Positions 33,995 through 58,316 of a stretch of 64,000 bases of DNA are shown one piece after another. The notes under the pieces were generated by a model that saw only the letters and a program-made list of their open reading frames with translations, searched no databases and was not told the DNA's origin. Every line of letters begins with the position of its first letter. The stretch's first letter is position 1. Both the position numbers and the translations under genes were made by a program. The DNA comes from an uncultured Bacilli bacterium. Its GTDB lineage: Bacteria > Bacillota_I > Bacilli_A > RFN20 > CAG-826. The stretch lies in contig CAJOLV010000005.1 in assembly GCA_905235515.1 (NCBI GenBank), forward strand, positions 6,409 to 70,408, read 5' to 3'.

Positions 33995-34075
33995 TATTAA
34001 AACCTCCTCGTGTTAAAAATATAATACAAAAAAGGAATAGATTTCTCCATTCCTTAATTGATATTAGTGACTAGA

Positions 34076-34477
34076 TTATTCAACCCAAGTAACAACACTG
34101 ATAGGAGCGTTATCACCTTTACGGTTACCTAATTTTAATCTTCTGGTGTAGCCACCATTACGGGATTTGAATTTAGGACCTAATTCATTGAATAAGACAT
34201 CTAAGGCTTTAACGCCTTGTTCATTTTCAATGTTTCTGACAAATCTAGCAGCTTGTCTTTTCGCATTCATGACATCTTCTTTTTTGGTTAATGTCACTAA
34301 ACGGTCAGCTTCTTTAACAACGTCACGAGCAGTGGCTTCTGTGACTTTGACAGTGCCGTGAAGAATTAAATCTGTCACAACATTACGAAGCATATTTTCA
34401 TATTTGCTCTTTGTGTAAGCGGCCTTAAATCTAACGCCTGTCTTACCATGAACATTTTTTCTACCTTGTGCTGGCAT
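34076..34477 (-). CDS. rplQ: 50S ribosomal protein L17 (with ~17-aa N-terminal extension)
   Basis: 'AYTKSKYENMLRNVVTDLILHGTVKVTEATA' L17 core; GGAGG RBS at annotated start. Confidence 0.9.
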   Translation of the reverse strand: MPAQGRKNVHGKTGVRFKAAYTKSKYENMLRNVVTDLILHGTVKVTEATARDVVKEADRLVTLTKKEDVMNAKRQAARFVRNIENEQGVKALDVLFNELGPKFKSRNGGYTRRLKLGNRKGDNAPISVVTWVE

Positions 34478-34491
34478 ATTTAATCCTCCTA

Positions 34492-35460
34492 TTATTCAAA
34501 GTCTTTAAAGGCTAAGTTATAACTGATAAGTTTTTCTTTAATTTCTTTTAAGGATTTCTTACCAAGGTTCTTGACCTTCATCATATCTTCCTCAGTCTTT
34601 TCTGTTAATTCAAGAACAGTTTGGATACCCGCTCTCTTGAGACAGTTATAAGAACGAACAGAGAGATCGAGTTCTTCGATTGGGAAGTTTTCGTATTTGT
34701 TTTCTTCGACTGGAGCGACATCCTTTTCGATATTAATATCGCGTGTAATATCCGCAACGCCTAAGAATTTTTCAAAGTGTTTAATTAATAAGTTAGCACT
34801 TTCAGCAAGAGCCACTTGTGGGGTGATGGAACCATCAGTCCAAACTTCAACTGTTAATTTATCGAAGTGTGAATCGTGACCAACACGGGTGTTATCGACT
34901 GTGTAGTTAGCTTTTCTCACTGGAGAATAGTTACTATCAGTAGCGATTGTACCTAATTGGAGGTTTGGATGGAGAACTTTATTTTGTTCGCCAGTGACAT
35001 AACCTCTACCATTACGAGCGTGGAGAACCATGTGTAAGCTACCACGATCTGTTAAATGGGCAAGAACTAATTCTGGGTTGACGACTTCTACGCCTGTTGG
35101 GCAAATAATGTCACCAGCGGTAATAACGGCAGGACCTTGAGCTTTGATTTCAAGTCTCTTATTGCCATCATCTTCTTCGTCAATACGGAGAATTAAATCT
35201 TTTAAGTTGAGAATGATGGTTGTGACGTCTTCTTCCACACCTTCTAAAGCGGTGAATTCGTGACGTGCACCTTCAACTTCAACAGCGTAAACGGATGCGC
35301 CTGGTAAGGATGAGAGTAAAACTCTACGTAAAGCATTACCTAAGGTTAATCCGAATCCTCTTTCGAGTGGTTCGATAACGAAGCGACCATAATTTTCATT
35401 ACCATCATAGTCTGCTTGGGTGATTTCAAATCTTTCAAATGGATTAGCAATTTTCATCAT
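34492..35460 (-). CDS. rpoA: DNA-directed RNA polymerase subunit alpha
   Basis: 322 aa, 'ERGFGLTLGNALRRVLLSSLPG'. Confidence 0.95.
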   Translation of the reverse strand: MMKIANPFERFEITQADYDGNENYGRFVIEPLERGFGLTLGNALRRVLLSSLPGASVYAVEVEGARHEFTALEGVEEDVTTIILNLKDLILRIDEEDDGNKRLEIKAQGPAVITAGDIICPTGVEVVNPELVLAHLTDRGSLHMVLHARNGRGYVTGEQNKVLHPNLQLGTIATDSNYSPVRKANYTVDNTRVGHDSHFDKLTVEVWTDGSITPQVALAESANLLIKHFEKFLGVADITRDINIEKDVAPVEENKYENFPIEELDLSVRSYNCLKRAGIQTVLELTEKTEEDMMKVKNLGKKSLKEIKEKLISYNLAFKDFE

Positions 35461-35472
35461 TCTTACCTCCTA

Positions 35473-35862
35473 TTAGCCTCTTGGGCGTTTTGGTGGACGG
35501 CAACCGTTATGTGGGATTGGTGTGCTATCAACGATAGATAACACTTGTAAGCCAGCGACGGCTAAGCTACGGATTGCGCCTTCTCTACCTGGGCCTGGGC
35601 CTTTGACATCGACATCGACTTGACGAATACCTTGTTCATAGGCAGCTTTGGCAGCGGCTTCAGCAGCTTGCATAGCGGCGAATGGTGTACTTTTCTTTGC
35701 GCCTTTAAAGCCCATCGCACCAGCGGAGGACCATGTTAAGGCGTTACCTTGTTCATCACAAATTGTGACGATTGTGTTATTGAAAGTTGAGTGAATGTGG
35801 GCGACGCCTTTCGTAAATGAGCGTTTAATTTTCTTTTTACGAGCATTAGTTTTTTGTGCCAT
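35473..35862 (-). CDS. rpsK: 30S ribosomal protein S11
   Basis: Sequence and operon position. Confidence 0.95.
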
Positions 35863-35883
35863 AACTATTTACTACTCCTTTCA

Positions 35884-36261
35884 TTAACCTTGTGGCGCCA
35901 TCTTCTTATTCGCAATGGTCTTACGTGGACCTTTACGTGTTCTGGCGTTGGTTTTACTTCTTTGACCACGGACTGGTAAACCTCTTCTATGACGTGTGCC
36001 ACGGTAGCAGCCGATTTCGGTTAAACGTTTGATATTTAACGCGACTTCACGTCTGAGATCACCTTCGGTCTTATATTTACCGATTTCATTTCTAATTGCA
36101 CCGAGTTGATCATCGGTTAAATCTTTAACTCTGATTGTGCCGTCGACTTTTGCGCCTTCGCAAATAAGTTCAGCGGTATGTCTTCCGATACCATAAATAT
36201 AGGTAAGGGAAATTTTGACTGGTTTGTCATTAGGAATATCTACACCTACTAAACGTGCCAT
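35884..36261 (-). CDS. rpsM: 30S ribosomal protein S13
   Basis: '[13 protein letters not shown]'. Confidence 0.95.
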
Positions 36262-36276
36262 ATTCTAATATCCTCC

Positions 36277-36390
36277 TTAACCTTGTCTCTGCTTATGCTT
36301 TGGATTTTCACAAATGACCATAACTTTGCCATTTCTCTTAATCACTTTGCATTTTGGGCAGATTGGTTTGACTGAAGGTCTGACTTTCAT
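36277..36390 (-). CDS. rpmJ: 50S ribosomal protein L36 (37 aa; below ORF-track cutoff)
   Basis: Hand translation '[37 protein letters not shown]' with AGGAGG RBS. Confidence 0.9.
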
Positions 36391-36414
36391 AATTTCTTTC
36401 CTCCTAGTTTGATT

Positions 36415-36633
36415 CTACTTGAATCTAAATGTTATGCGGCCCCGTGTTAAATCATAAGGCGAGATTTCTACTGTAACTTTATCACCTGGGAGAATGCGTA
36501 TGTAATTCATACGGATTTTTCCAGAAACGGTGGCCAAGATTACAACGCCGTTCTCTAGCTTAACCTTGAACATGGTGTTCGGTAAGCATTCTGTAACGAC
36601 CGCCTGTACTTCGATCATATCTTGTTTAGACAT
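36415..36633 (-). CDS. infA: Translation initiation factor IF-1 (start MSKQDMIEV; track ORF longer)
   Basis: '[45 protein letters not shown]'. Confidence 0.9.
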
Positions 36634-37399
36634 ATAGTTTCTTTTCCTCTTCTGTGAGAGTAATAATTTCTCTTCCGTTTTCGGTAATGACGATGGTGTT
36701 TTCATAGTGACAAGTTAGTTTCCCATCTCTACTTTTAACAGTCCATCCGTCACCGAGGATACGTGTATCTTTTCTTCCTTCAAGAACCATTGGCTCAATG
36801 GCTAATGTCATTCCTTTTTGAAGAAGTGGTCCACTACCTTCTTTACCAAAATTAGGAATTGATGGATCTTCATGCATGCTTTTACCAATACCGTGACCGG
36901 TAAAGTCTCTAGCGACATTATATCCGTTACTCTCGACTGTTTTTTGGATTGCGCTTTGAATATCGCCTAAGTGATTGCCTGGTTTGGCTTGAGCAATTCC
37001 GTTAAAGAATGCTTGTTTAGTTACTTCCATCAATCTTTGAGCGCGTTCACTAATGATGCCTATCGCGAATGTACGTGTCGCATCAGCGCAATAGCCTTGA
37101 TAATTCGCCACGACATCAAGGGAGACGATATCTCCTTCTCTTAAAATAATCTTATGAGAAGGAATACCATGAATTAATGTGTCATTAACACTAACGCAGG
37201 TCATCGCTGGATAATCATAATATCCTTTGCACGGACCAGTGCAACCCATTGAGGTAATCACTTCTTCCGCTTTAGCGTTGATCTGATAAGTAGAAACACC
37301 TGGTTTCATCAATTTGCCACATTCTTCAAAGACTTTAGCAACGACTTCGCCGGCCTTCTTCATTAATTCGATTTCCCTTGTTGACTTGACGATAATCAT
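36626..37399 (-). CDS. map: Methionine aminopeptidase type I
   Basis: 257 aa, metal ligands pattern '[12 protein letters not shown]...HGIG'. Confidence 0.9.
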
Positions 37400-37401
37400 A
37401 A

Positions 37402-38052
37402 TTATTTGTTTAAAAATTTAGAAACTTGATCGAAGAGTTCTTCTTTACCCACTAAGGAATTAAAGGATTCTAGCAAGCCTTCTTTGGCGTAGAAATCTAA
37501 TAATGGCTTAGTGTCTTGAACATAGTGTTCTAAGCGGACTTTTAACGCTTCTTCATTATCATCCGCTCTTTGATAGAGTGGTCCACCACAGATATCACAG
37601 ACACCTTCAACCTTTGGTTTTAAGGTGATGACATGATATGGGGCGCCACAAGTTTTGCAAACTCTTCTGCCACTGATGCGGCGAATGAGTTCAGCATTGT
37701 CACAATCTAAGTTCACAACAACTTCAATTGGACGATTTATTTCTTTTGATAATTCTCTTAACGCTTCCGCTTGTGGAAGGGTTCTTGGAAAACCATCAAG
37801 TAAGAAACCTTTCGCGCAATCACCTTGACTAAGGCGTTCTTTGACTAAGCCAATTGTGACTTCATCTGGAACTAAATCACCTTTATCAATATATGATTTT
37901 GCTAATGTGCCAAGAGGTGTACCTGCTTTAATGGCGTCTCTAAACATATCACCTGTTGAGATATGAACGAGATTTAAAGCGGACATTAATTGCTTGGCAA
38001 GAGTGCCTTTTCCCGCTCCGGGAGGACCCATTAAGATAATGTTTTTCTTCAC
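37402..38052 (-). CDS. adk: Adenylate kinase (zinc-lid type)
   Basis: 'GPPGAGKGT' P-loop; 'CKTCGAPYH...CDICGG' lid. Confidence 0.95.
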   Translation of the reverse strand: MKKNIILMGPPGAGKGTLAKQLMSALNLVHISTGDMFRDAIKAGTPLGTLAKSYIDKGDLVPDEVTIGLVKERLSQGDCAKGFLLDGFPRTLPQAEALRELSKEINRPIEVVVNLDCDNAELIRRISGRRVCKTCGAPYHVITLKPKVEGVCDICGGPLYQRADDNEEALKVRLEHYVQDTKPLLDFYAKEGLLESFNSLVGKEELFDQVSKFLNK

Positions 38053-39404
38053 TAGTCTCTTCCTCCTGCTGCGACGACTTCGTCGAATGATTTACCAGCT
38101 AATAAGCCATCGATTTGGGTGTTAAGCTCGAGAGCGACACCAACAACGATGATTAAGCCAGTTCCACCGAGTGCTAAACTTGGATAATCTTTGAAGACTG
38201 TCAAGGTGAGGACACTTGGTAATGCGGCAATGATAGCTAAGGCCATCGCACCGATGAATGTCACGCGGTTAAGAACTTTACGAACATATCTTTCGGTTTC
38301 AATACCTGGTCTCACACCAGGAATATAAGAGCCGTTTTTCTGGAAGTTTTCCGCTAATTGTTCAGGATTGATTTGTAAATTAGCATAGAAGAAGGTGAAC
38401 ATAATGGTTAAGGCGAGATAGATAATCAAGCCCCAAGGCATACTCCAACTTCCCATGTTGGTCATCTTACTACTAGAGAAGACATTGAGCCATTCAGCGT
38501 TAGTGTCACTGCCTAAGAAACCGACAATGATACTTGGAGCAGTCATAATTGAGCTAGCAAAGATGACTGGGATAACGCCTGCGGAGTTAATCTTAATTGG
38601 TAAGAAACTCGCTTTGGCCATTGATTGAGTTTGTCCTCCACCCTTTCCTGAATGTTGTACTGGAATCTTTCTCTTTGATAATTCAACGAATGTAACAAAG
38701 GAGATGATGAGTAAGAAGGAGAGGATGTAAAGAAGGAATGAGAAGACGCCTTTAATAAGTTGGGCATCTCCTGGGTTAGCACCGATAATCCATCTTTGGA
38801 AAGCAGTGCTAATTTGATTTGGTAAGGAGCAGACGATACCCGCAAAAATAATCATGGAAATACCGTTACCGATACCTTTAACAGAGATTTGGTCACCTAA
38901 CCACATCACTGTCATTGAGCCAGCAAGCATGACCACGACGACATAGACATATGTAAGCCATGGAGTGCTACCAGCGGAGAAGCTGACTAAGTCACTTGTC
39001 TCCATTGTTTTAATGATGCCATAAGCTTGGACAGCACCTAACATAAGAGTTAAGTAACGAGTCGCTAATTCCATCTTTTTACGACCATATTGGCCTTGAC
39101 GTTTTAATTCAGATAAGGCTGGTAAGACATCGGTCGCTAATAATTGAACGATAATCTGCGCAGTAATATATGGGGAAACGCCTAATGCGAAGATGGAGAA
39201 TGTTTGTAATGTTCCACCGCCTAAGATGTTCATTAATGCCAATGCGTTATTACTTTCTAAGTAAGTAGATAAGTTTTCACTTTCTAATGTCGCACCTGGA
39301 ACAGTAATCTGACATCCAATACGGAAGATGAATAGGATCAAGATCGTAAACATAATACGATTCATGATCTCTTTGTTTTTAAGAATTGATCCTAATTTCT
39401 TCAT
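38052..39404 (-). CDS. secY: Protein translocase subunit SecY
   Basis: 450 aa, 10 TM, operon position. Confidence 0.95.
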   Translation of the reverse strand: MKKLGSILKNKEIMNRIMFTILILFIFRIGCQITVPGATLESENLSTYLESNNALALMNILGGGTLQTFSIFALGVSPYITAQIIVQLLATDVLPALSELKRQGQYGRKKMELATRYLTLMLGAVQAYGIIKTMETSDLVSFSAGSTPWLTYVYVVVVMLAGSMTVMWLGDQISVKGIGNGISMIIFAGIVCSLPNQISTAFQRWIIGANPGDAQLIKGVFSFLLYILSFLLIISFVTFVELSKRKIPVQHSGKGGGQTQSMAKASFLPIKINSAGVIPVIFASSIMTAPSIIVGFLGSDTNAEWLNVFSSSKMTNMGSWSMPWGLIIYLALTIMFTFFYANLQINPEQLAENFQKNGSYIPGVRPGIETERYVRKVLNRVTFIGAMALAIIAALPSVLTLTVFKDYPSLALGGTGLIIVVGVALELNTQIDGLLAGKSFDEVVAAGGRD

Positions 39405-39406
39405 AA

Positions 39407-39847
39407 TTAGATCACCTCAATTTTGCCACCAGCTTCATTAATAGCTTGTTCGGCTGATTTGGAGAATTTATTAGCTTGGACAGTTAAGGCTTTGCTTAAT
39501 TTGCCATTACCTAATACTTTAATTCCATCATATTCCTTACGGACTAAACCGGATTCAATTAATAAAGTTGGAGTGACCAATGTACCGGCTTCAAATCTTT
39601 CAAGCGCGGAAACATTAATGACTGCATAATTGACATGATTAACATTCTTAAAACCACGTTTTGGTAATGCTCTGAATAATGGTAATTGACCACCTTCGAA
39701 GCCTAAACGGACACCACCGCCTGATCTAGCATTTTGACCTTTGTGGCCTTTGCCAGCGGTTTTGCCGTTACCACTACCTTCACCACGGCCTTTACGCCAA
39801 TTGGCTTGACGGCTGCCAGCGGTTGGTTGAAGTTCATGCAATTTCAT
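39407..39847 (-). CDS. rplO: 50S ribosomal protein L15
   Basis: Gly/Lys-rich N-term, operon position. Confidence 0.95.
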
Positions 39848-39887
39848 AAATGCACCTCCTTAATTCAATTTTTGCTATAAGCAATAA

Positions 39888-40511
39888 TTATTCTTTACTA
39901 CGAAGAGTTTTAATCTCTTTATAGTTCTTAAGGCTTTCTAAACCTTGGTTGACAGCGCGGACAATGTTGATTGGGGCGCGGCTACCATAAACTTTGGAGC
40001 AAACGTTTTGCACGCCTGCTAATTCTAAGACCGCACGAACTGGGCCACCGGCGATAATTCCGGTACCTTCAGGTGCTGGTTTTAATAAGACGGAGCAAGC
40101 TCCATATTTACCGACGACTTCGTGAGAAATGGTATTACCTTTAACAAGATGAATCTTGAAGAGGTTTTTCTTCGCGGCTTCGGTAGCTTTTTTAATAGCA
40201 TCTGGGACTTCAGCGGCTTTGCCGAGAGCAAATCCGTATCTACCTTTATGATCACCAATGACCATTAAGGCGGTGAATTTCATACGACGTCCACCTTTAA
40301 CGGTTTTACTAACTCTGTTAATAAAGACGACTCTTTCCTCAAATTCTTTTGGTTCATCACGACGGACATCTTTACGATCTCTTCTTGGGCCACCTTTACG
40401 GTCACCACGTGGACGACGATCTTGTGGACGTCTTTCGCCTTCTTTAGGAGCTTCGACTGGAGCTGGTTGTTCCGCAACTGGTGCTTCTTGAACTAATTTT
40501 TCTTCTTCCAT
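39888..40511 (-). CDS. rpsE: 30S ribosomal protein S5 with ~45-aa charged low-complexity N-terminal extension
   Basis: Core '[29 protein letters not shown]'; N-term '[49 protein letters not shown]'. Confidence 0.9.
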
Positions 40512-40525
40512 TTGTTACTCCTCCA

Positions 40526-40882
40526 TTAGAATTCTAAGCCAGCTTCACGAGCGGCTTCTGCTAATGCTTTGATTCGACCGTGATAAACATAACCACTTCT
40601 ATCAAAGACGATTTTCTTTAAACCTTTGGCGAGTGCTTTTTCAGCGATGTCTTTGCCAACTTTACCAGCAGCTTCAATATTGGAGCCATTTTCAAGTTTT
40701 AAGGACATAGAGGAGGAAGACACTAAAGTGCAACCTTTCACATCGTCAATAAGTTGTGCTTCGATGTTTTTGTTTGAACGGTAGACACATAATCTTGGTG
40801 CTTCCGCGGTGCCAGAGATTTTGGCTCTAACACGGGCATGTCTACGAACACGTGAGACATTTTTGGATTCTTTTTTGACCAT
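40526..40882 (-). CDS. rplR: 50S ribosomal protein L18
   Basis: operon position, 118 aa. Confidence 0.95.
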
Positions 40883-40901
40883 AATTATCTATCTCCTTTC
40901 A

Positions 40902-41459
40902 TTATTTTGCAGCACGTTTGCCTTCTTTTGTGGCAACGTACTCACCTTGATAACGGATACCCTTACCAAGATATGGTTCTGGACGTCTGACGTCTCTAAT
41001 TAAAGCCGCGGTTTGTCCAACTTTTTGTTTGTCAATACCTTCGACTTGGACTAAGACGATACCAGTATTACCTTTGACTTCAGGAACAGAGATTTTCACG
41101 CCTGCTTCTGGAGTGATGACAATTGTGTGGGAGTAACCAGCGAATAATTCCACTGATTCACCTTTCATAACTGCTTTATAACCGATACCTCTCATCTCTA
41201 AGATTTTCTTATAGCCTTCGGTGACACCGACGACTGCGTTATGGAAGTTAGCACGAGTGGTACCATGGTTTTGTTTGGTTTGTTTTTCTTCGTTTTGGCG
41301 AGTGAAGGTCACAACCGCGCCATCGACATGAACATCGATACCTTTGTTGATTAAGACTTCTAATGAGCCTTTTGGACCTTTAACAGTCGCTTTTTGACCG
41401 TTTAATTCAACGGTGACTCCAGCTGGGAGATCAATATGTTTATTACCAATTCTTGACAT
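40902..41459 (-). CDS. rplF: 50S ribosomal protein L6
   Basis: 'MSRIGNK' start, 185 aa. Confidence 0.95.
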   Translation of the reverse strand: MSRIGNKHIDLPAGVTVELNGQKATVKGPKGSLEVLINKGIDVHVDGAVVTFTRQNEEKQTKQNHGTTRANFHNAVVGVTEGYKKILEMRGIGYKAVMKGESVELFAGYSHTIVITPEAGVKISVPEVKGNTGIVLVQVEGIDKQKVGQTAALIRDVRRPEPYLGKGIRYQGEYVATKEGKRAAK

Positions 41460-41470
41460 AAACTATCCTC

Positions 41471-41863
41471 CTACCAGATATAAGCGATAACTTCGCCACC
41501 GATACCTAAGGTTCTTGCTTTTGCATCGGTCATCACACCTTGAGAGGTGGAAATAATAGCGATACCTAAGCCTTTAAGAACTTTTGGTAATTTTTCACAA
41601 CCGACATTAACGCGCAAGCCTGGTTTAGAGATTTTCTTACAACCAGAGATAACACGTGTGCCATCTGCTGCGTATTTTAATGTGATTGTTAATTCTTTTT
41701 TGACTTCGCCTTTGACTTTATAGTCAACGATGAAGCCTTCGTCTTTTAAGATTCTGGCGATTTCCACTTTCATCTTGGAACTTGGTATCTTCACAGATTC
41801 ATATCTTAATTGGTTTGCGTTTCTAATGCGGGTAAGCATATCCGCGATTGGATCAGTCATCAT
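41471..41863 (-). CDS. rpsH: 30S ribosomal protein S8
   Basis: '[13 protein letters not shown]'. Confidence 0.95.
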
Positions 41864-41884
41864 AAATAATCGATATCCTCCTTA

Positions 41885-42070
41885 TTACCAAGATGATTTC
41901 TTCATGCCTGGGATTTCACCCTTGTACGCTAATTCACGTAAGCAGATACGGCATAAATGGAATTTTGAATAGACAGAGTGAGGACGTCCACAACGTTCAC
42001 ATCTTGTATATTCACGAACTTTAAATTTTTGTGGTCTACTTTGTTTGACTTTAATACTAGTTTTGGCCAT
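41885..42070 (-). CDS. rpsN: 30S ribosomal protein S14 type Z (zinc-binding)
   Basis: 61 aa with CxxC...CxxC. Confidence 0.95.
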
Positions 42071-42084
42071 TGTGAGCTCCTTTC

Positions 42085-42798
42085 TTATCTATGGAATGGC
42101 ATACCTAATAATTCTAATAATGTGTATGCTTCTTCGTCTTTTTTAGCGGTTGTGACAATAACGATGTCCATACCGCGAACCTTTGCAACCTTATCGTAAT
42201 CGATTTCTGGGAAGATTAATTGTTCTTTAATACCTAAGGTGTAGTTGCCACGGCCATCAAAGGCGTTTCTGCTAACACCACGGAAGTCACGAACACGTGG
42301 GAGAGCGATGGAGACTAACTTATCGTAGAAGTCCCACATACGTAAGCCACGTAATGTAACTTTACAACCAATTTCCTGACCTTCACGAACTTTAAAGGTA
42401 GCGATGGATTTCTTAGCCTTTGTAATGATTGGCTTTTGGCCAGTGATTTGGGCTAATTCAGCAACAGATTCTTCTAATCTCTTGCTATCTTGAGTGGCAT
42501 CACCAACACCGATGTTGATGACGATTTTATTTAAGGCAGGGATTTGCATAACGGAAGAATAATTATATTTTTCCATTAAAGCTTTTCTCACTTCGTTTTC
42601 ATATTTAACTTGTAAACGGTTAACGATAGTGGCTTTTTTGTTACCTGCACCAGACTTTTTGGCTGGTTTCTTTTCAGCTTTTGGGGCTTCAGCCTTAGCT
42701 GGAGTTGGTTTTTCAACTGGTTTTTCTTCTGCTTTTGGAGCTTCTTCTTTTTTAGGAGCGGCTTTCTTTGCAGGTGTTTTTTTGACTTCTTCTGCCAT
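42085..42798 (-). CDS. rplE: 50S ribosomal protein L5 with ~58-aa Ala/Lys/Pro/Glu-rich N-terminal extension (start MAEEVKK with AGGAGG RBS; track ORF begins further upstream)
   Basis: Core '[43 protein letters not shown]'. Confidence 0.9.
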
Positions 42799-42811
42799 GT
42801 TGATTACCTCC

Positions 42812-43117
42812 TTATAACACTGTGCCGCTCTTTTTCGCAAAGCGGACTTTTTTACCCTTAACTTCTTTATGACCAATTCTAGTTGGTTTTTTAGTTTTTG
42901 GGTCTTCAATCATAACGTTAGAGGCATCAATTGGAGCGTAAACTTCAACGATGGAACCTTCTGGGTTAGCTTGAGTTGGTTTTTGGTGTTTTTTGCGGAC
43001 GTTAATACCTTCGACGACAACACGATTTTGTTCAGGAATGACTTTTTGAATTGTGCCACTCTTACCTTTATCACGGCCGGCGATAACAATAACTTTGTCA
43101 CCTTTTCTAAGATCCAT
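42812..43117 (-). CDS. rplX: 50S ribosomal protein L24
   Basis: '[15 protein letters not shown]' KOW motif. Confidence 0.95.
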
Positions 43118-43132
43118 AGTTATCTATCCTCC

Positions 43133-43510
43133 TTATAACACTTCTGGGGCGAGGGAAACAATTTTCATGAATCCTTCTTGACCCTTATCACGTAATTCTC
43201 TGGCCACAGGACCAAATACACGTGTACCTACAGGCGCGTTATCATCATTAATAATAACAACGGCGTTGTCATCAAACTTGATGGTTGAACCATCTGGACG
43301 ATTGATGGCTTTCTTTGTACGAACGATGACACATCTGACAACGTCACCTTTCTTGACTTTACCATTTGGGATGGCATCCTTCACTGCACATAAGACGATA
43401 TCGCCGATAGAGGCGCTTTTCTTGAAGGAACCACCATAGAGGGTGAAAGCGCGAACGGAACGTGCACCACTGTTATCAGCGACAACAAGATTCGTTTCCT
43501 TTTGGATCAT
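43133..43510 (-). CDS. rplN: 50S ribosomal protein L14
   Basis: '[17 protein letters not shown]'. Confidence 0.95.
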
Positions 43511-43878
43511 TACTTGCTTTCCTCCTCTTCTGCCTTTTCTTCTTCTGCAAGGCCAGCTTCCGCTAATTCAGCAGCTTCTTCAGCTTTTAATTCGGCTTCA
43601 GCTTCTTTGACAGAGAGTTCGGCTTTCTTATCAATGCTCACTAATCTGAATCTCTTTGTAGCGGAGAGTTTGCGGGTTTCCATAATGGTCACTGTATCGC
43701 CAACTTTTGCTTCATTGTTTTCATCATGAGCGTAGAATTTTTTGCCATATTTGACACGTTTTCCATATTTTGGGTGTCTTCTATGTGTTTCAATGAGGAC
43801 GACAATTGTCTTATCGTTTTTATCAGAAACAACAACACCTTGAACAGTTCTTCTGGCTGCTACTTTTCTTTCTTCCAT
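43510..43878 (-). CDS. rpsQ: 30S ribosomal protein S17 with ~40-aa acidic Ala/Glu-rich C-terminal extension
   Basis: Core '[19 protein letters not shown]'; tail '[32 protein letters not shown]'. Confidence 0.9.
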
Positions 43879-43892
43879 GACAACTGACCTCC

Positions 43893-44093
43893 TTATTTGC
43901 TTTCTTCTAACTCGCGTTCTCTAAGAACTAAGTTAACTCTTGCGATGTCTTTTCTCACAGCGATGACATCTTCGCCTCTTTCGAGGGCTCCAACAGCTTT
44001 CTTTCTGCGGAGTTCGAATAATTGTTCTTTAAGTGAGTATAATTTTTCTTTTAATTCGACTGTGGATAATTCACGGACTTCATTAATTTTCAT
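43893..44093 (-). CDS. rpmC: 50S ribosomal protein L29
   Basis: 66 aa, operon position. Confidence 0.95.
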
Positions 44094-44098
44094 ATCGA

Positions 44099-44512
44099 TT
44101 ATTCCTCACCTTTCTTAACAACTTTACATTTGATTGGAAGCTTATAAGCCGCTAAGCGAAGGGCTTCACGTGCATCTTCTTCAGAGATACCTCTGACTTC
44201 GAACATGATCGCGCCTTTACGGACGACTGCCACCCAATCTTCTGGGGAACCTTTACCAGAACCCATACGAACTTCGGCTGGTTTCTTGGTTTTGGCTAAG
44301 TGTGGGAAGATTCTAATAATGACCTTGCCACCTTTTTTGGTGTATCTGGAGATAACAACACGAGCCGCTTCAATTTGGCGGGTGGTAATCCACGCACCTT
44401 CAAGGGCTTCTAAACCAAATTCACCGAACGCAACGGTGTTACCACCTTTGCAATGTCCTTCATATTTAATAATATGTGGACGTCTGTATTTAACTCTCTT
44501 TGGTTGTAACAT
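44099..44512 (-). CDS. rplP: 50S ribosomal protein L16
   Basis: '[11 protein letters not shown]'. Confidence 0.95.
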
Positions 44513-44514
44513 GA

Positions 44515-45195
44515 TTATTCTCCTTTCTCTTCAGAAGATTTCTTTTGAAGTTCAGGACGAATTTCACCACGACAGATCCAAACTTTGACACCTAAGCGGC
44601 CATATTGAGTGGCTGCTTCTGTTTTGGCGTAGTCAATATCACTACGGAGGGTATGAAGAGGAATGATACCTTCTTTATAGCCTTCACTACGAGCGATATC
44701 CGCACCGCCTAAACGACCAGAGACGACAGTTCTGATACCTTTAGCACCAGCTTTACGAACTCTTTGGATGGCTTTCTTTTGGACGCTTCTGAAACTGGCT
44801 CTTTCTTCTAATTGTTTGGCAATTGATTCTGCAACGATTGTTGCGTCGAGGTCAGGATTCTTCACTTCTTGAACGTCGATTCTGACATCGGAGCCCTTCA
44901 AAATCTTACTTAAATCTTCTTTAATATTATTGATATTTTTTCCATCTTGACCGATGACAACGCCTGGTCTAGCAACGTGGATTGAGATAATCACTTTGTG
45001 ACCGTTTTCAGCTTTGATTCTTTCGATGACAACATGGGATAACATCGCTTCTTTGAGGTTCTTTTCGAGATATTTACGAACTTTGATATCTTCGTTGAGG
45101 AAGACATGGAATTCTTTATCATCAGCAAACCAACGAGAATTCCAATCCTTGTTGATGCCAACACGCATTCCAACTGGACTTACTTTTTGACCCAT
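44515..45195 (-). CDS. rpsC: 30S ribosomal protein S3
   Basis: '[24 protein letters not shown]'. Confidence 0.95.
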
Positions 45196-45208
45196 TAAAA
45201 CTTCCTCC

Positions 45209-45742
45209 TTATCTCATTTTGACAATCACAGTAATGTGACTTGCTCTTTTCACTAAACCACTAGCAGAACCTTTTGCTCTTGGTAAGTATCTTTTCATTC
45301 TTAAGCCATCATTTGCGTAAATGGTTGCAATATATAATTTATCTTCATCCATTCCGAAGTTGTTGGTGGCATTGGCTGCTGCTGATTTGATGAGCTTGCT
45401 CACTGGGACAGCGGCGGCTTTGTTAATGTTTGCTAAGATGCCTAACGCTTCTTTCACATCTTTGCCCCTCACTAAATCGATAACTAATCTAATTTTACGT
45501 GGAGTGACTCTGACATTCTTAGCAATCGCTCTAGCTTCTGTTGGCATTGGCTTTTTAGGAGCTTCTGGTTTCTTTTCAACTTTCTTAGCTGGAGCTTTTT
45601 TGGCTGGTTTCTTTTCAGCCTTAGGAGCTTCTTCAACTGGAGCTTCTGTAGGGGCTACTTCTTCGACTGGTGCTTCTTTTTTAGGAGCAACTTTCTTAGG
45701 AGCGGCTTTCTTTGCAGGTGCTTTTTTGACTTCTTCTGCCAT
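45209..45742 (-). CDS. rplV: 50S ribosomal protein L22 with ~65-aa Ala/Lys/Pro-rich N-terminal extension
   Basis: Core 'ARAIAKNVRVTPRKIRLVIDLVRGKDVKEAL'; N-term '[25 protein letters not shown]...'. Confidence 0.9.
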   Translation of the reverse strand: MAEEVKKAPAKKAAPKKVAPKKEAPVEEVAPTEAPVEEAPKAEKKPAKKAPAKKVEKKPEAPKKPMPTEARAIAKNVRVTPRKIRLVIDLVRGKDVKEALGILANINKAAAVPVSKLIKSAAANATNNFGMDEDKLYIATIYANDGLRMKRYLPRAKGSASGLVKRASHITVIVKMR

Positions 45743-45757
45743 GTTGATTACCTCCTA

Positions 45758-46051
45758 TTATTTACTGGCGTTCGCTGCTTTATCTTCAGCAGTGTGGCCT
45801 GTATGTCCTGTGAATTTTCTGGTTGGAGAGAATTCACCTAATTTGTGTCCGACCATATCTTCTGTCACATAGACTGTGATATGTTCTTTACCATTGTAGA
45901 CCGCGAAGGTGTGGCCAACGAATGATGGATAAATGGTTGAACGACGTGACCAAGTCTTAATGACTTCTTTTTTGTTTGCCGCGTTTAATGCGTCGACTTT
46001 CTTTTGTAAAGATTCATCGATGAATGCGCCTTTTTTCAAACTTCTAGACAT
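45758..46051 (-). CDS. rpsS: 30S ribosomal protein S19
   Basis: '[15 protein letters not shown]'. Confidence 0.95.
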
Positions 46052-46073
46052 AATTCATTTTCCTCCTTTGCGA

Positions 46074-46907
46074 TTATTTGCCGTTGCGTCTACGGACGAT
46101 TAATTTATTTGACGCTTTCTTTTGGTTACGGGTCTTGACACCTAATGCACGTTTGCCCCATGGGGTACGTGGTGCGTCACGACCGACAGGACATTTACCT
46201 TCACCACCACCATGTGGGTGATCGACTGGGTTCATAACAGAACCACGAACTGTTGGTCTTGTACCTAACCATCTTGTTTTACCGGCCTTACCATCATTGA
46301 TAAGGTTCCAGTCTTCATTGCCGACAAAGCCGACTGTCGCGCGGCAATTGCCGAGAATCTTTCTCACTTCACCAGAAGCGAGTCTGACCATGACGTATTT
46401 GCCTTCGGCACCGAGAACTTGAGCAGCTGTACCAGCAGCGCGGCATAATTGGCCACCTCTACCTGGTTCTAACTCAACGTTATGAATGAAGGTACCTTCA
46501 GGAATGCTCTTTAAGCACATTGCGTTGCCTGGTAAAACATCCACTGCAACGCCGGAAATAACTTGATATCCGACTTTGACATCTTTTGGTGCGAGAATGT
46601 ATCTCTTTTCGCCATCTAAGTAACTGACTAAACAAATGTTTGCGTTACGATTTGGATCATACTCGATAGTTTTCACGACCGCTGGGATGCCATCTTTATT
46701 ACGTTTGAAGTCAATAACACGATATTTGCGTTTATGACCTCCACCAATGTGGCGGCAGGTGATTTTACCTTGGTTATTTCTGCCACCAGTTTTGGATAAA
46801 CTGACTAATAAGCTTTTCTCAGGAGTATTGGTAGTGATTTCACTGAATGTCGAGTTGGTCATGTTTCTACGAGATGGGCTCGTAGGTTTGTAAGTTCTAA
46901 TTGACAT
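46074..46907 (-). CDS. rplB: 50S ribosomal protein L2
   Basis: 277 aa, 'GGGHKRKYR'. Confidence 0.95.
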
Positions 46908-46945
46908 TACTTGTTCCTCCTATAGTTGAATAGTTCGAACTTTAA

Positions 46946-47293
46946 CTATTCTTTGAATAGGTCAATTGCTTCGCCTTCTGCGATAGTAACAACTGCCTTC
47001 TTATAACCGGAGATCTTACCTTGGTAACGGGTGCCTCTGGTTGTTAATTTGGTCTTAACATTAGCAATCTTCACATCGATAACTTTGACTTGGAAGATTC
47101 TTTCAAACGCTAATTTGACTTCAGTCTTGTTGGCGTCTGGTAAGACTTTTAATGTTACTTTGTTTTCGTTTTGCATTAATGACATGGATTTTTCAGTAAT
47201 GACTGGTTTAACGATAACTTCGTAATCTCTAACTGTTGCTTTTGAGAAGCTTGGAGCTTTTGCTTTAGCTTCGACTGTTTTCTTGGCTGCCAT
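46946..47293 (-). CDS. rplW: 50S ribosomal protein L23 (short Ala/Lys-rich N-terminal extension)
   Basis: 'YEVIVKPVITEKSM'. Confidence 0.95.
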   Translation of the reverse strand: MAAKKTVEAKAKAPSFSKATVRDYEVIVKPVITEKSMSLMQNENKVTLKVLPDANKTEVKLAFERIFQVKVIDVKIANVKTKLTTRGTRYQGKISGYKKAVVTIAEGEAIDLFKE

Positions 47294-47294
47294 A

Positions 47295-47930
47295 TTACTT
47301 CAATGCCTCCTCAACTGCTTTAATTGCTTCAACGCTGATGACTAAGGCATCTGCATTTAACATATCGAGAACGCTTAAGTTGTCTTTAGTGACAACTCTG
47401 GCATAGCCAACGTTTCTGCAGCTACCAACTAAGTTTTCATCTAATTCGTTGACGACGACTAAGGTCTTCTTGTTGGCTTGTAATGCATCGAGCATTGCCA
47501 CGAAGTTCTTTGTCTTCTTTTCTTCGAATTTGATTTCATCAACAACGACTAATCCTGCTTTGGCTTTTAAGCTTAATGCAGATTTAACCGCGAGAGCATG
47601 TTCTTTCTTATTTTGGGAAATCTTGTAGTTTTGATTTCCAACTGGTCCGAAGACCGTTCCACCACCGACCCACACTGGTGAACGTGTTGTACCAGCACGA
47701 GCGCGGCCTGTGCCTTTTTGACGGAATGGCTTTTTGCCACCGCCACTCACTTCGTGACGAACCTTTGTTTTGGCTGTCGCTTGGCGAGAATTGCTTTGCT
47801 CAACTTGAACAGCGTCGAACATTGCTTGGTTATGTGGTTCAATTCCGAACACGGAGGCGCTTAAGGCTAACTTAGAGACTTCTTCGCCTTTCATGTTGAG
47901 AACTTTCACGTTAATTTTCTTTTCTGCCAT
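47295..47930 (-). CDS. rplD: 50S ribosomal protein L4
   Basis: 211 aa, operon position. Confidence 0.95.
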   Translation of the reverse strand: MAEKKINVKVLNMKGEEVSKLALSASVFGIEPHNQAMFDAVQVEQSNSRQATAKTKVRHEVSGGGKKPFRQKGTGRARAGTTRSPVWVGGGTVFGPVGNQNYKISQNKKEHALAVKSALSLKAKAGLVVVDEIKFEEKKTKNFVAMLDALQANKKTLVVVNELDENLVGSCRNVGYARVVTKDNLSVLDMLNADALVISVEAIKAVEEALK

Positions 47931-47953
47931 AACATTTGTTCTCCTTTCTGTTC

Positions 47954-48682
47954 TTATTCAGCGGCTTCAGTTGCTGGAGCTTCGACTGGAGCTTCTTCAA
48001 CGACTGGAGCTGGAGTGCGATCCACTAAGCCTTTGATGACTTCTGGATGTTTCACTTCTTTAACAGCGCTTCTGATTGTAACGATGGATTTCTTTGCACC
48101 TGGGAGACCACCTTTAATTAAGATGTAACCCTTTTCTGCATTGACATCGATAACCATAACGTTGTGAATGGTAACTGATTCATTGCCCCAATGACCGGAC
48201 ATGTGTTTGCCTGGCATGACGCCGTGGTTGTAACGACCATTGTTAGCGAATGTACCTTGACCTCTATGGTAACCTGAACCATGACCTTTAGGACCAATGT
48301 GTTGATTCCATCTCTTGATAACGCCACTGTAACCATGACCTTTACCGGTACCGATAACATCAACGACGTCACCTTTCTTGAACATATCAACTGTGATTAA
48401 GTCACCTAATTTGTAGTTGGCCATTTCATCACCGCGTAATTCTTTAGAAACTTGGTGTGGAACTGTGCCGGCTTTCTTAGCAATACCTAATTCTGGTTTG
48501 TTAGCGCGGCTTTCTTTCTTTTCTTCATAACCAACTTGGACTGCCACATAACCGTCTTTTTCAACTGTCTTAACTTGTGTGACAACATTTGGTAAGACTT
48601 CAACGACGGTAACTGGATACATGGTTCCATCTTCAGCGAAGACTTCTGTCATGCCCATTTTACGACCTAAAATTGCTTTCAT
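47954..48682 (-). CDS. rplC: 50S ribosomal protein L3 (with ~25-aa Pro/Ala/Glu-rich C-terminal tail)
   Basis: 'MKAILGRKMGMTEVF'; tail 'TPAPVVEEAPVEAPATEAAE'. Confidence 0.95.
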   Translation of the reverse strand: MKAILGRKMGMTEVFAEDGTMYPVTVVEVLPNVVTQVKTVEKDGYVAVQVGYEEKKESRANKPELGIAKKAGTVPHQVSKELRGDEMANYKLGDLITVDMFKKGDVVDVIGTGKGHGYSGVIKRWNQHIGPKGHGSGYHRGQGTFANNGRYNHGVMPGKHMSGHWGNESVTIHNVMVIDVNAEKGYILIKGGLPGAKKSIVTIRSAVKEVKHPEVIKGLVDRTPAPVVEEAPVEAPATEAAE

Positions 48683-48696
48683 TTCGTCTTACCTCC

Positions 48697-49008
48697 TTAT
48701 AGTTTGATTGTGATATCGACACCAGCTGGGAGATCTAAATTCTTTAATGAATCCATTGTCTCTTTCTTAGGATTGTTGATATCGATGATACGTTTGTGTG
48801 TTCTGATTTCGAATTGTTCACGAGAATCCTTATATTTGTGAACAGCTCTTAAAATCGTATAAACTTGTTTTTCCGTTGGTAGCGGAATAGGACCCACAAC
48901 AGTAGCCCCAGTTTTCTTCGCTGCAGCAACAATCTTTTCTGCGGCAACATCTAAGTTGACGTGATCATATGCTTGTAAGCGAACTCTGATTTTTGTTGCT
49001 TTTGCCAT
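48697..49008 (-). CDS. rpsJ: 30S ribosomal protein S10
   Basis: '[14 protein letters not shown]'. Confidence 0.95.
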
Positions 49009-49174
49009 GAATTGAATTTCCTCCTATCACTTTCAGGCTTTGACCTATTTCTCACTTCTTGCGAATTCCCTGATGACACCTTCATGACAACGCTTGTGGG
49101 TGTATCAGCAACCTCGCACATCAACGCGAGCGGTCAACGTTCAAATCATACCCCTCTACGCATATACGTGTCAA
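49009..49174 (-). promoter_or_regulatory. S10-operon promoter (TTGACA 49169-49174, 18-nt spacer, TATGAT 49145-49150) and ~130-nt GC-enriched structured leader
   Basis: Hexamers read on minus strand; leader contains CTCGC...GCGAG and CTGATACACC...GGTGTCATCAG stems. Confidence 0.5.
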
Positions 49175-49441
49175 CAATTATTTAAATAAATTTATAAAGA
49201 GGAAAAAATCTCACCCACAAATGAGAAAAAATAATTCAGTATTTTTGGCTAAAAAATGGGCAAAAAGCTAATCAAAATTGGGCAAAAAAACCGTATTTTT
49301 TCGCTTTATTTTTGCATTTTAGACCTATAATTCTTCACCCATTCCAAAAGAGCGTTTGTTTTATTTTTCCCGATGAAATGGAAATTATTATATCTGTAAT
49401 AATGAATCTATTAGTCAAATAGTGTTAAAAACGGATTTCAA

Positions 49442-50104
49442 TTATTTAATTTCCGTTTTCTTTTTGCTCAGATAATTGTTATAAGAATATTCACAACCAC
49501 AATATTCTTGAAAATACATTTCGTGCTCTCTCACTATTTGTAGAGATTTTTCATAGCCATTGTTTTTCTTAAAATCAGCAGGAAGCCATTTAGTCTTTTT
49601 GTGTTGTTCTTCCAGTTCATATCCAATCTTATTTAACATTTGAGAATTCTTATAGCGAGAAATACTCATAACAGTACCAAAATAATCAAAGCCATGTTCT
49701 TCAGCGTAGTCATATCCAAACGTTAATCTTTTGCGGTAACACTTAAAACATCTTTCGCCACCTTCAGGGATATCTTTAAGCGGCTCTAAATCTTTCATGT
49801 AGTTTAAGTTATCATAAGGAACTTCTAAAACCTTAATATCAGGATCAACTTCAGATAAGAATCTTTTCAACTCTTCTTTTCTGCGCTTATATTCAGCTTC
49901 AGGATAAATATTAGAGTTGTTATAAATAATGGTGATATCAAAATAATCTTTTAGTTCTTCGTGTGGAATAGTAAAGCACGGACCACAGCAAGCGTGCAAA
50001 AGTAATTTTGGTTTATTTCCGCTATTTTTCAGATTTTCAAGCAACTTTTGTAGTTCTTTTTGATAATTTATCTTATTTTCCATAAATGAACATTGAGTCT
50101 CCAA
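49442..50104 (-). CDS. queH: Epoxyqueuosine reductase QueH (DUF208)
   Basis: '[12 protein letters not shown]' and downstream 'CFKCYRKRL' Cys motifs. Confidence 0.8.
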
Positions 50105-57092: not shown

Positions 57093-58316
57093 TTATTTGG
57101 TTTTAAGCACTTCTTTATACTTTTCAAGTTCTTCACTATTAGCGAGAACGAAGTGACCCGGAACAATCTCAGTAAGTTTTGGACCCTCTTTAGAGTAATC
57201 GTGTTCGTTACTAGGAACATAGACGAACCTCTTTCTTTCCTTTTCGCTTAATGGATCCGGCTTTGGAATCGCGGATAATAACGCTCTAGTATATGGGTGC
57301 AATGGATGAGCGAATAATTCATCACTACTTGCTAATTCAACGATATTACCAAAATACATAACCGCAATTCTATCACAGAAGTATTTAACAACTGATAAGT
57401 CGTGAGCGATAAACATAATAGTTAATCCCATTTCATCTTTTAAATTTTTTAAAAGGTTGATAATTTGGGCCCTAATTGACACGTCTAAAGCAGAAATAGG
57501 TTCGTCACAGATGAGGAAGTCTGGATTCATAATTAACGCTCTAGCGATGCCAATACGTTGTCTTTGACCACCAGAGAATTCATGTGGATATCTAGATGCA
57601 TATTCTGGAAGTAATCCAACTTTAATCAAGACATCTTTGACTTTTTGAGAATTCTCAAACTTATTATATTGACCTTGGATATGTAGGCCTTCTTGAATGA
57701 TATCTTCAACAGTCATACGTGGATCTAAGGAGTCAACAGGATCTTGGAAGATCATTTGCATCTTAGACATTAATTTCTTATCAACGTGAGCGTTGTCATA
57801 ATTATGTTGAGCAATCTTTTCTTTTTGCTCTGCAACTACTCTATCGACTTCAGCTTGAATCTCGGCGATTTGCGCATTGTATTGATCTTGAATCTTTTTA
57901 GTTTGTTCAGAGACAAATTGTTCATCACCTTGTTCGGAGCGGAACTCTCTGATTTTAGATTCCATCTCAATTTTCAATTCTTGAATCTTTTTCTTGGCCT
58001 TGAGTTTCTTCCATTTAATTTCTTTTTCATTCCATCTACTACCCGCAACAATACGATAGCCTTTGAAATAAACAGAACCAGAAGTAGCTTTATAAAGTCT
58101 AATCATGGTTCTACCAGTTGTGGTTTTACCACATCCTGATTCACCAACAACACCAAAGCATTCACCTTTTTTGATGTCAAAACTTACATCATGAACAGCT
58201 TTTGTCACAAAAGCATTCTTGCCATGACCAAACTTAAAGAATTGTTTTAAGTGTCTAACAGATACTTCGATATTTTGATCGACTAATTCAGGAAGATATG
58301 TAACAGTTCTTGCCAT
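57093..58316 (-). CDS. oppF: Oligopeptide ABC transporter ATP-binding protein OppF-type with ~90-aa coiled-coil insertion
   Basis: Walker A 'GESGCGKTT', signature 'FSGGQRQRIGIARA', 'ICDEPISALD', C-term oligopeptide-ABC tail; insertion between Walker A and Q-loop. Confidence 0.85.
   Translation of the reverse strand: MARTVTYLPELVDQNIEVSVRHLKQFFKFGHGKNAFVTKAVHDVSFDIKKGECFGVVGESGCGKTTTGRTMIRLYKATSGSVYFKGYRIVAGSRWNEKEIKWKKLKAKKKIQELKIEMESKIREFRSEQGDEQFVSEQTKKIQDQYNAQIAEIQAEVDRVVAEQKEKIAQHNYDNAHVDKKLMSKMQMIFQDPVDSLDPRMTVEDIIQEGLHIQGQYNKFENSQKVKDVLIKVGLLPEYASRYPHEFSGGQRQRIGIARALIMNPDFLICDEPISALDVSIRAQIINLLKNLKDEMGLTIMFIAHDLSVVKYFCDRIAVMYFGNIVELASSDELFAHPLHPYTRALLSAIPKPDPLSEKERKRFVYVPSNEHDYSKEGPKLTEIVPGHFVLANSEELEKYKEVLKTK

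Follow-up and report, generated by a model that had tools for sequence, protein, structure and literature searches.

True paralogues in bacteria are well known to undergo gene conversion, examples being tufA and tufB of Salmonella and other long-lived gene pairs (PMC5485169; PMC6053082). Here we describe a related pattern in a 64,000-nucleotide (nt) stretch of DNA from an uncultured Bacilli bacterium (assembly GCA_905235515.1, contig CAJOLV010000005.1, positions 6,409 to 70,408; hereafter the window), in which the 5′ ends of rplV and rplE, the genes for the ribosomal proteins uL22 and uL5, carry a 61-nt segment that is the same in both at every position but one. We consider it likely that a recent ectopic gene conversion within the S10/spc operon, non-reciprocal and directed from rplV to rplE, left this identity behind. 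As with tufA/tufB, the copying would have been non-reciprocal, between two loci of one chromosome and with the donor unchanged, and the segments within the genome are more alike than orthologues are, synonymous sites included. The tuf genes, however, are full-length paralogues (~99% identical) with tracts of hundreds of bases, whereas rplV and rplE encode unrelated folds and have only a low-complexity tail in common. The tract proposed here is 35–61 nt long, is flanked by very short identity, includes the ribosome-binding site (RBS) and probably deleted a domain, and the homogenization is sporadic and not sustained.

Lineage-specific extensions of these proteins are also known. C-terminal extensions of uL22 occur in Mycoplasma pneumoniae (7ood, 159 amino acids (aa)) and in mycobacteria (5v7q, 197 aa), N-terminal ones in chloroplast uL22 and uL5, and NCBIfam holds an entry named 'L22/unknown domain fusion' (PRK12279). 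These have in common with the window proteins a canonical core combined with low-complexity or extra segments limited to one lineage, but the tails described here differ in that both are N-terminal, 58–68 aa long, mutually homologous and apparently exchanged between genes. In the solved bacterial structures that we found, the core starts at most ~20 residues from the N-terminus of uL22 and ~11 residues from that of uL5. No paper describing these uL22/uL5 tails, or the fusions of DUF2188 or YegP domains to uL5 that we found in related genomes, was found in the literature searched on N-terminal extensions of bacterial uL22 and uL5, disordered lysine-rich extensions of ribosomal proteins, DUF2188 in connection with ribosomes, and YegP/DUF1508. 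What differs here is the likely conversion between genes of unrelated fold by way of a common low-complexity tail, with the RBS included, and its coupling to the turnover of a modular uL5 N-terminus.

Both copies of the segment lie on the minus strand (Table 1), are identical at 60 of 61 nt and read AGGAGGTAATCAACATGGCAGAAGAAGTCAAAAAA(A/G)CACCTGCAAAGAAAGCCGCTCCTAA. The sole internal mismatch on the coding (minus) strand, A at 42777 in rplE against G at 45721 in rplV, is the first base of codon 8, which is ACA (Thr) in rplE and GCA (Ala) in rplV. Each copy comprises a consensus Shine-Dalgarno (SD) sequence (AGGAGG), an 8-nt spacer (TAATCAAC), the ATG, codons 2–15 and the first two bases of codon 16, and the identity stops at the third base of that codon (AAA vs. 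AAG); the first base of the rplE SD, 42812, doubles as the final base of the rplX stop codon. The first-pass annotation, which had placed the two segments at these positions with one base different and had them cover the RBS, the start codon and about 16 codons, was right on both counts. The 61-mer occurs exactly twice in the window, even with up to three mismatches allowed, and none of 100 dinucleotide-preserving shuffles of the window gave any 61-mer match. The identity thus defined reaches into all synonymous sites of codons 2–15 and into the non-coding spacer. For one and the same peptide, an identical codon choice in both genes has a computed P of ~1e−5 to 1e−4, and an SD–ATG spacer identical at eight of eight positions was encountered in none of 5256 cross-genome rplV/rplE comparisons.

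The direction of copying was read from related contigs. L081, an ENA contig, matches 4.7 kb of the window's operon at 97.0% identity and has exactly the same rplV 5′ end, and a collection-wide metagenome scan for the 44-nt coding-sequence cassette returned only L097 and L098 (JGI contigs, ~95% identical), in both of which the cassette stands at rplV, with one spacer base different from the window. At rplE the picture is another one: the plain-tail alleles of L085, L086, L093 and L096 (90–95% identity in the L5 core) differ at synonymous sites and in the spacer, which reads AAAGTAG(A/T)(A/C), and rplE of L081, L094, L095, L099 and L100 starts with a DUF2188 domain. The 5′ end of the window rplE is therefore nearer to its own rplV (60/61) than to rplE of relatives that are 90–97% identical, while the 5′ end of rplV is unchanged with respect to its orthologues (identical in L081). 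A cassette that is stable at rplV and exceptional at rplE points to rplV as the donor and to rplE as the recipient, and these comparisons place the copying after, or near, the split from L081-like strains. The recent gene conversion that the first-pass annotation had proposed for the two 5′ ends is thereby upheld, and a direction and a tract can be added to it.

The same orthologues bear on selection as a source of the identity, with both genes independently keeping the same optimal initiation region and N-terminal peptide. We regard this as very improbable and as largely refuted by the comparison, given that relatives at 90–97% identity lack the identical segment and have in rplE another spacer, synonymous differences or DUF2188. 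It is true that N-termini of the MAEE-KK type are common on both proteins across the clade, that conservation in L22 is higher over the first ~7 residues than in the middle of its tail, and that rplE of L096 encodes the same 16 residues as the window rplV with only synonymous differences (5 changes), which suggests that the peptide, or the A-richness of the early codons, is under some constraint. A constraint at the peptide level nevertheless leaves the identical synonymous sites and the identical spacer unexplained, and the L096 allele itself illustrates ordinary divergence at this site. Nor was a conserved or unusual RNA element found at the start regions: an Rfam scan of positions 34000–50000 (E ≤ 1) returned no ribosomal protein leader and only a chance snoRNA-like match, and when the 101-nt start regions of the two genes were folded, neither a significant structure nor one common to both emerged (fold z-scores −1.95 and −0.89).

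Similarity between the two genes goes beyond the 61 nt, as the rplV and rplE tails of the window align over their full length, with indels, and a second block encoding 12 residues is 91% identical (Table 1). This second block is old, because orthologues of both genes carry it too. The homology of the whole tails would fit an old tail duplication without any later exchange, the 61 nt being its best-preserved remnant, but such a history predicts that rplV is equally distant from its own and from foreign rplE genes. Identity between rplV and rplE over their first 48 coding nt was compared within and between 73 genomes that have both tails, the window included; the window pair is 96% identical, against a maximum of 73% to the rplE of any other genome, and orthologous rplE 5′ ends differ. 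This contradicts the duplication history, to which we give next to no chance.

In the same set of 73 genomes, the median identity within a genome was 0.52 and equal to the cross-genome median, so that general, clade-wide concerted evolution of the two tails was rejected, only a subset being elevated. That subset is nonetheless far larger than expected: identities ≥ 0.75 were found in 11 of 73 genomes (1.75 expected), ≥ 0.80 in five (0.36 expected) and ≥ 0.85 in three (0.10 expected; permutation p < 1e−4), and the excess of high-identity genomes persists when the window is left out. In L011, ~64 nt are common to rplV and rplE with 3 mismatches and encode MAEE(T/A)KKPAAKKTTSTAAKKPA; L050 has an exact match of 33 nt between the two genes, and L033, L017 and L018 reach 79–81%. 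The sequences common to the rplV/rplE pairs differ by lineage. The related genome L016 agrees with L011 at the start of rplV but not at that of rplE, so that rplV is again the likely donor. In the genomes compared, homogenization is thus sporadic and not sustained concerted evolution. Annotators and phylogenomic pipelines are thereby warned that, in this clade, orthology is not simple at the 5′ ends of rplE and rplV.

The bounds of the tract were set by nucleotide comparison of the window rplV, the window rplE and the rplE genes of L081, L085, L096, L099 and L100. Colinear homology between the window and L081 ends 9 nt into rplE (ATGGCAGAA), just past the ATG, and restarts at AAGAAAGCCGCTCCTAAAAAAGAAGAAGC, with one mismatch in the next ~51 nt. 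Left of this restart, the window rplE matches its own rplV and not the rplE of L081 (window GAAGAA GTC AAAAAA ACA CCT GCA vs. L081 GAAGAA --- AAGAAA GCT CCT GTT), and from these mismatches a minimal tract running from 42803 to 42769 follows. Its left flank AGGAGGTAA and its right flank AAGAAAGCCGCTCCTAA (identities of 9 nt and 17 nt) are common to the donor, the recipient and the L081 rplE allele and can therefore be assigned to neither side. The right-hand homology is supplied by an internal EE-KKAP(A/V)KKAAPKK segment, homologous to the rplV start, that every DUF2188-type allele has in its linker.

Table 1. Positions of the two genes, the duplicated segment, the conversion tract and the related rplE alleles; coordinates refer to the window unless a contig is named
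Feature	Location	Strand	Details
rplV (uL22), 177 aa	45209..45742	-	tail ~residues 1-68 (45539-45742), then canonical L22 core
rplE (uL5), 237 aa	42085..42798	-	tail ~residues 1-58 (42625-42798), then canonical L5 core
61-nt repeat copy at rplV, probable donor	45696..45756	-	SD AGGAGG 45756-45751, spacer 45750-45743, ATG 45742-45740
61-nt repeat copy at rplE, probable recipient	42752..42812	-	SD 42812-42807, spacer 42806-42799, ATG 42798-42796
Putative minimal conversion tract in rplE, ~35 nt	42769..42803	-	spacer TCAAC through codon 10
Second tail-homology block in rplV, older, 12 residues	45597..45631	-	32/35 nt identical to 42656-42690
Second tail-homology block in rplE, older, 12 residues	42656..42690	-	32/35 nt identical to 45597-45631
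DUF2188-uL5 rplE	L081:4714-5541; L094:923-1954; L099:514-1581; L100:579-1625; L028		proteins P0128-P0137 and others
YegP-uL5 rplE	L020, L021, L024		N-terminal extension 179-183 aa; proteins P0221, P0233

In the conversion that we propose, the initiation region of rplV and its first ~10–16 codons would have been copied over the matching part of rplE, 2.9 kb downstream, which the old, mutually homologous low-complexity tail segments at the start of both genes would have made possible; the tract of ~35 nt would lie between the two short stretches common to donor and recipient. The change from GCA to ACA in codon 8 of rplE may be a substitution that has arisen since the copying, or may have come with the donor allele. 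The route would have been a non-reciprocal copy, made either between sister chromosomes or by template switching at replication, and may have been RecA-dependent. A reciprocal crossover between these direct repeats would delete nine essential genes. As a result, uL5 would now have the SD, the spacer and the first 16 codons of uL22, which may equalize initiation of the two proteins. More generally, low-complexity coding tails could serve as recombination substrates between otherwise unrelated essential genes, and such exchange could swap ribosome-binding sites and N-termini, and probably add or remove whole domains, in the most conserved operon of the genome.

A number of observations weigh against this interpretation. 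Classical RecA-mediated conversion would call for much more than the 9 nt of the left homology arm, for which reason a microhomology-mediated resolution on that side is plausible. Most genomes of the clade show no homogenization (median of 52%, the cross-genome value). The relatives are mosaic, with identities of 90–96% that vary gene by gene, so that it is not proven whether DUF2188 was gained or lost, and among the close relatives L081 is the only contig with both genes, which means that the timing and the step of DUF2188 loss rest on few sequences. Finally, the sequence is a metagenome assembly that was judged from assembled contigs, and the one identical contig, L091, may come from the same sample. 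This last point would favor an assembly or polishing artefact, in which reads of one gene start were misplaced onto the other, but we hold that to be extremely unlikely: usual reads and k-mers are longer than a 61-nt repeat, each copy lies in an intact frame with colinear unique flanks, the two differ by one base, L091 (an 82.7-kb ENA contig from ERZ28573638 / SAMEA5961693) agrees with the window at 100% over a 10.5-kb stretch that holds both copies, and analogous events with other sequences are present in unrelated assemblies (L011 and L050).

The mosaic relatives also raise the matter of allele import, in which the rplV-like 5′ end of rplE would have been made elsewhere and brought in by homologous replacement from another strain. 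Identity to L081 does fall from 97% upstream of rplE to about 94–96% in the L5 core, and the relatives rank differently gene by gene, which implies recombination between strains. The copy, however, matches the window's own rplV at 60 of 61 nt, spacer included, and a source strain would need the same rplV 5′ end; although such a source could exist, since L081 has that rplV 5′ end, an extra step would be required, and we consider import improbable.

The uL5 N-terminus of this clade carries at least three alternative modules: the plain tail, a DUF2188 form and a YegP form. In the second, which many close relatives encode, an N-terminal DUF2188 (PF09954, E about 4e−8 to 8e−8) is followed by an acidic stretch (EEENDALTDEDEGP) and a K/A/P/E linker, giving proteins of 325–355 aa; in the third, encoded by other relatives, two N-terminal DUF1508/YegP domains (PF07411, E 1e−27 to 1e−29, two stretches) are joined to the core by a K/A/P/E linker of the same kind. 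A tblastn search with the DUF2188 and YegP domains found no stand-alone copy of either in the window. The tail of the window L5 is nearest to the DUF2188-type alleles, the protein aligning over 98% of its length with DUF2188-type P0128 (91% identity) as against 78–80% with plain-type P0122–P0127, and we therefore lean slightly toward a recipient of the DUF2188 type, from which the event would have removed the domain. In that case, ~350 nt (spacer, DUF2188 and acidic linker) would have been replaced by the short rplV start. Alternatively, the recipient had a plain tail and DUF2188 was gained or transferred in the L081 lineage, which the mosaic identities allow. Through these fusions, two domains of unknown function, DUF2188 and YegP, gain a link to the ribosome that can be tested.

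The extensions themselves were delimited by sequence searches against the PDB, in which residue 59 of the window L5 aligned with residue 1 of Staphylococcus aureus uL5 and residue 69 of the window L22 with residue 2 of Thermus and S. aureus uL22. The conserved core thus starts at about residue 59–61 in uL5 and about residue 69–72 in uL22, and the extensions measure ~58 and ~68 residues, respectively. The first-pass annotation had given 55–65 aa of K/A/P/E-rich sequence before the core of both proteins; the richness stands and the lengths are corrected here. It had also given 177 aa for L22, which the open reading frame (ORF) 45209–45742 reproduces, and 238 aa for L5, where the ORF 42085–42798 yields 237. 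Both assignments to family are secure by Pfam and NCBIfam profiles with curated cut-offs: uL22 matched PF00237 with 117.9 bits (cut-off 28; residues 72–175 on profile positions 1–104 of 104) and TIGR01044 with 118.6 bits (cut-off 73.65), and uL5 matched PF00281 with 92.8 bits, PF00673 with 137.7 bits and NF000585 with 297.9 bits (cut-off 186), the last from residue 61 onwards.

Several features indicate that the tails are real coding sequence and are translated. A strong SD is positioned 8 nt upstream of both ATGs. In L5, the stretch from the ATG at 42798 to the conserved core has no further ATG, GTG or TTG codon, and upstream the sole alternative is a TTG at 42909, within rplX. In L22, the segment that adjoins the core (E60–T68, EAPKKPMPT) is invariant at the protein level in 34 homologues, a conservation that translation from Met66 would leave unexplained. 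The tails moreover remain in frame in ~70 genomes. The Ala/Lys/Pro-rich N-terminal extensions that had been read from the sequence on both proteins are hence corroborated, L5 by the absence of another start and L22 by the invariant segment. Two other ways of reading the region were discarded: a 274-aa, TTG-started ORF (42085–42909) as the L5 gene, which overlaps rplX and is without an SD, and two ORFs antisense to the tail-coding regions. The latter (plus strand; 62 aa at 42629–42817 and 183 aa at 45321–45872) could be miscalled as genes, and were rejected as by-products of low-complexity sequence.

In composition, the L22 tail has K19 A15 P13 E11 and the L5 tail K17 A13 P8 E9, each with a net charge of +8; K, A, P and E together account for 81–85% of the tail residues, with 9–11 Glu per tail (~16%). 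A scan for K/A/P/E-rich 30-residue windows over all ORFs of the window found L22 and L5 only. The first-pass annotation had likened the composition of these extensions to histone H1 or HU-like basic tails; Lys/Ala/Pro-rich tails are found on histone H1 and on bacterial nucleoid proteins such as mycobacterial HupB. The resemblance is compositional only, with repetitive PAKK/AAPKK-like motifs, predicted disorder and a net positive charge, but the window tails belong to ribosomal proteins and, with Glu at about every sixth residue, are polyampholytes. An exhaustive phmmer search with the 68-aa L22 tail against 1.84 billion representative sequences gave no match at E ≤ 0.001, the low-complexity correction stripping everything.

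An AlphaFold2 model built on a 34-sequence alignment assigned to L22 residues 1–56 a predicted local distance difference test score (pLDDT) below 50 and no secondary structure, and 88–94 to most of the core. Within the L22 tail, the first ~7 and the last ~12 residues are well kept, whereas the middle is variable and has many indels. We suggest that the tails are flexible, solvent-exposed polyampholyte arms or linkers on the surface of the 50S subunit, a reading that draws on the make-up of the tails, on the disorder predicted for them, on the conserved residues beside the core and on their use as linkers toward DUF2188 or YegP in sister alleles; the conserved segments adjoining the core (EAPKKPMPT in uL22, GNKKA in uL5) probably contact ribosomal RNA (rRNA). 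The two tails would not be neighbors, since the central protuberance is the site of uL5, whereas uL22 has its globular part near the tunnel exit, on the solvent side. It is conceivable, if rather doubtful, that uL5 and uL22 have at their N-termini a disordered tail cassette that is exchangeable and is shuffled between the two genes by recurrent short-tract conversion. On uL5 this cassette would also tether small accessory domains (DUF2188, or two YegP/DUF1508 domains) flexibly to the central protuberance, giving rise to strain-level ribosome heterogeneity. If this were so, a common partner, e.g., a modification enzyme, an assembly factor or rRNA, would recognize the common 16-residue N-terminal peptide as a functional motif.

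The distribution of the tails was surveyed in 80 loci, one genome per species, from metagenome-assembled genomes (MAGs) of uncultured bacteria of the rumen and the horse, human and chicken gut, labeled as Bacilli, Erysipelotrichaceae or Bacillales. An N-terminal K/A/P/E/T/V-rich extension of 18–105 residues was present on L22 in 76 of the 80 loci, and one of 16–183 residues on L5 in ~70 of them; the L5 tail is absent in four genomes (L062, L063, L065 and L070), three of which also lack the L22 tail. Close homologues in a large protein collection show the same pattern. Because both proteins carry them in most related uncultured Bacilli genomes, the tails are an old, clade-wide feature, and only the 61-nt identity is recent. 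A large group of uncultured gut and rumen Bacilli would accordingly have ribosomes with long disordered N-terminal arms on uL22 and uL5; neither these arms nor the DUF2188- and YegP-uL5 fusions are represented in any solved ribosome structure. Very long plain, low-complexity uL5 tails of 118–168 aa, without a globular domain, occur in L043, L046, L047 and L075, and the uL5 tail of L043, for example, has repeated (K)KE(V/A)APK units.

In the window, the operon is encoded on the minus strand in the order S10-L3-L4-L23-L2-S19-L22-S3-L16-L29-S17-L14-L24-L5-S14-S8-L6-L18-S5-L15-SecY-Adk, which puts the uL22 gene between rpsS and rpsC (S19-L22-S3) and the uL5 gene between rplX and rpsN (L24-L5-S14). 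The G+C content is 40–43% in the ribosomal operon region (positions 34000–49000) and 31–36% in the flanking DNA, and the plus strand has a strongly negative AT skew over the same region; the contrast with the low-G+C flanks and the skew fit highly expressed minus-strand genes. Other ribosomal proteins of the operon are extended as well (all on the minus strand). uS5 (rpsE, 39888–40511) has 207 aa with an N-terminal extension of ~55 residues that is first P/E-rich and then R/D-rich, uS17 (rpsQ, 43510–43878) has an acidic Ala/Glu-rich C-terminal tail of ~40 aa, uL3 (rplC, 47954–48682) a C-terminal PAPVVEEAPVEAPATEAAE tail, and uL23 (rplW, 46946–47293) ~20 extra N-terminal residues. Over the 80 loci, protein lengths range from 131 to 295 aa for S5, and in the clade from 87 to 181 aa for S17, from 218 to 309 aa for L3 and from 107 to 260 aa for L23.

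Outside the ribosomal operon, the window has a 161-nt direct repeat with 71% identity (57431–57591 and 58764–58924) in two adjacent genes with ABC_tran and oligo_HPY domains (OppD/OppF-type ATPases), which is ordinary paralogy in an oligopeptide transporter operon. The OppC-like permease encoded beside these genes is unusually long, with 728 aa.

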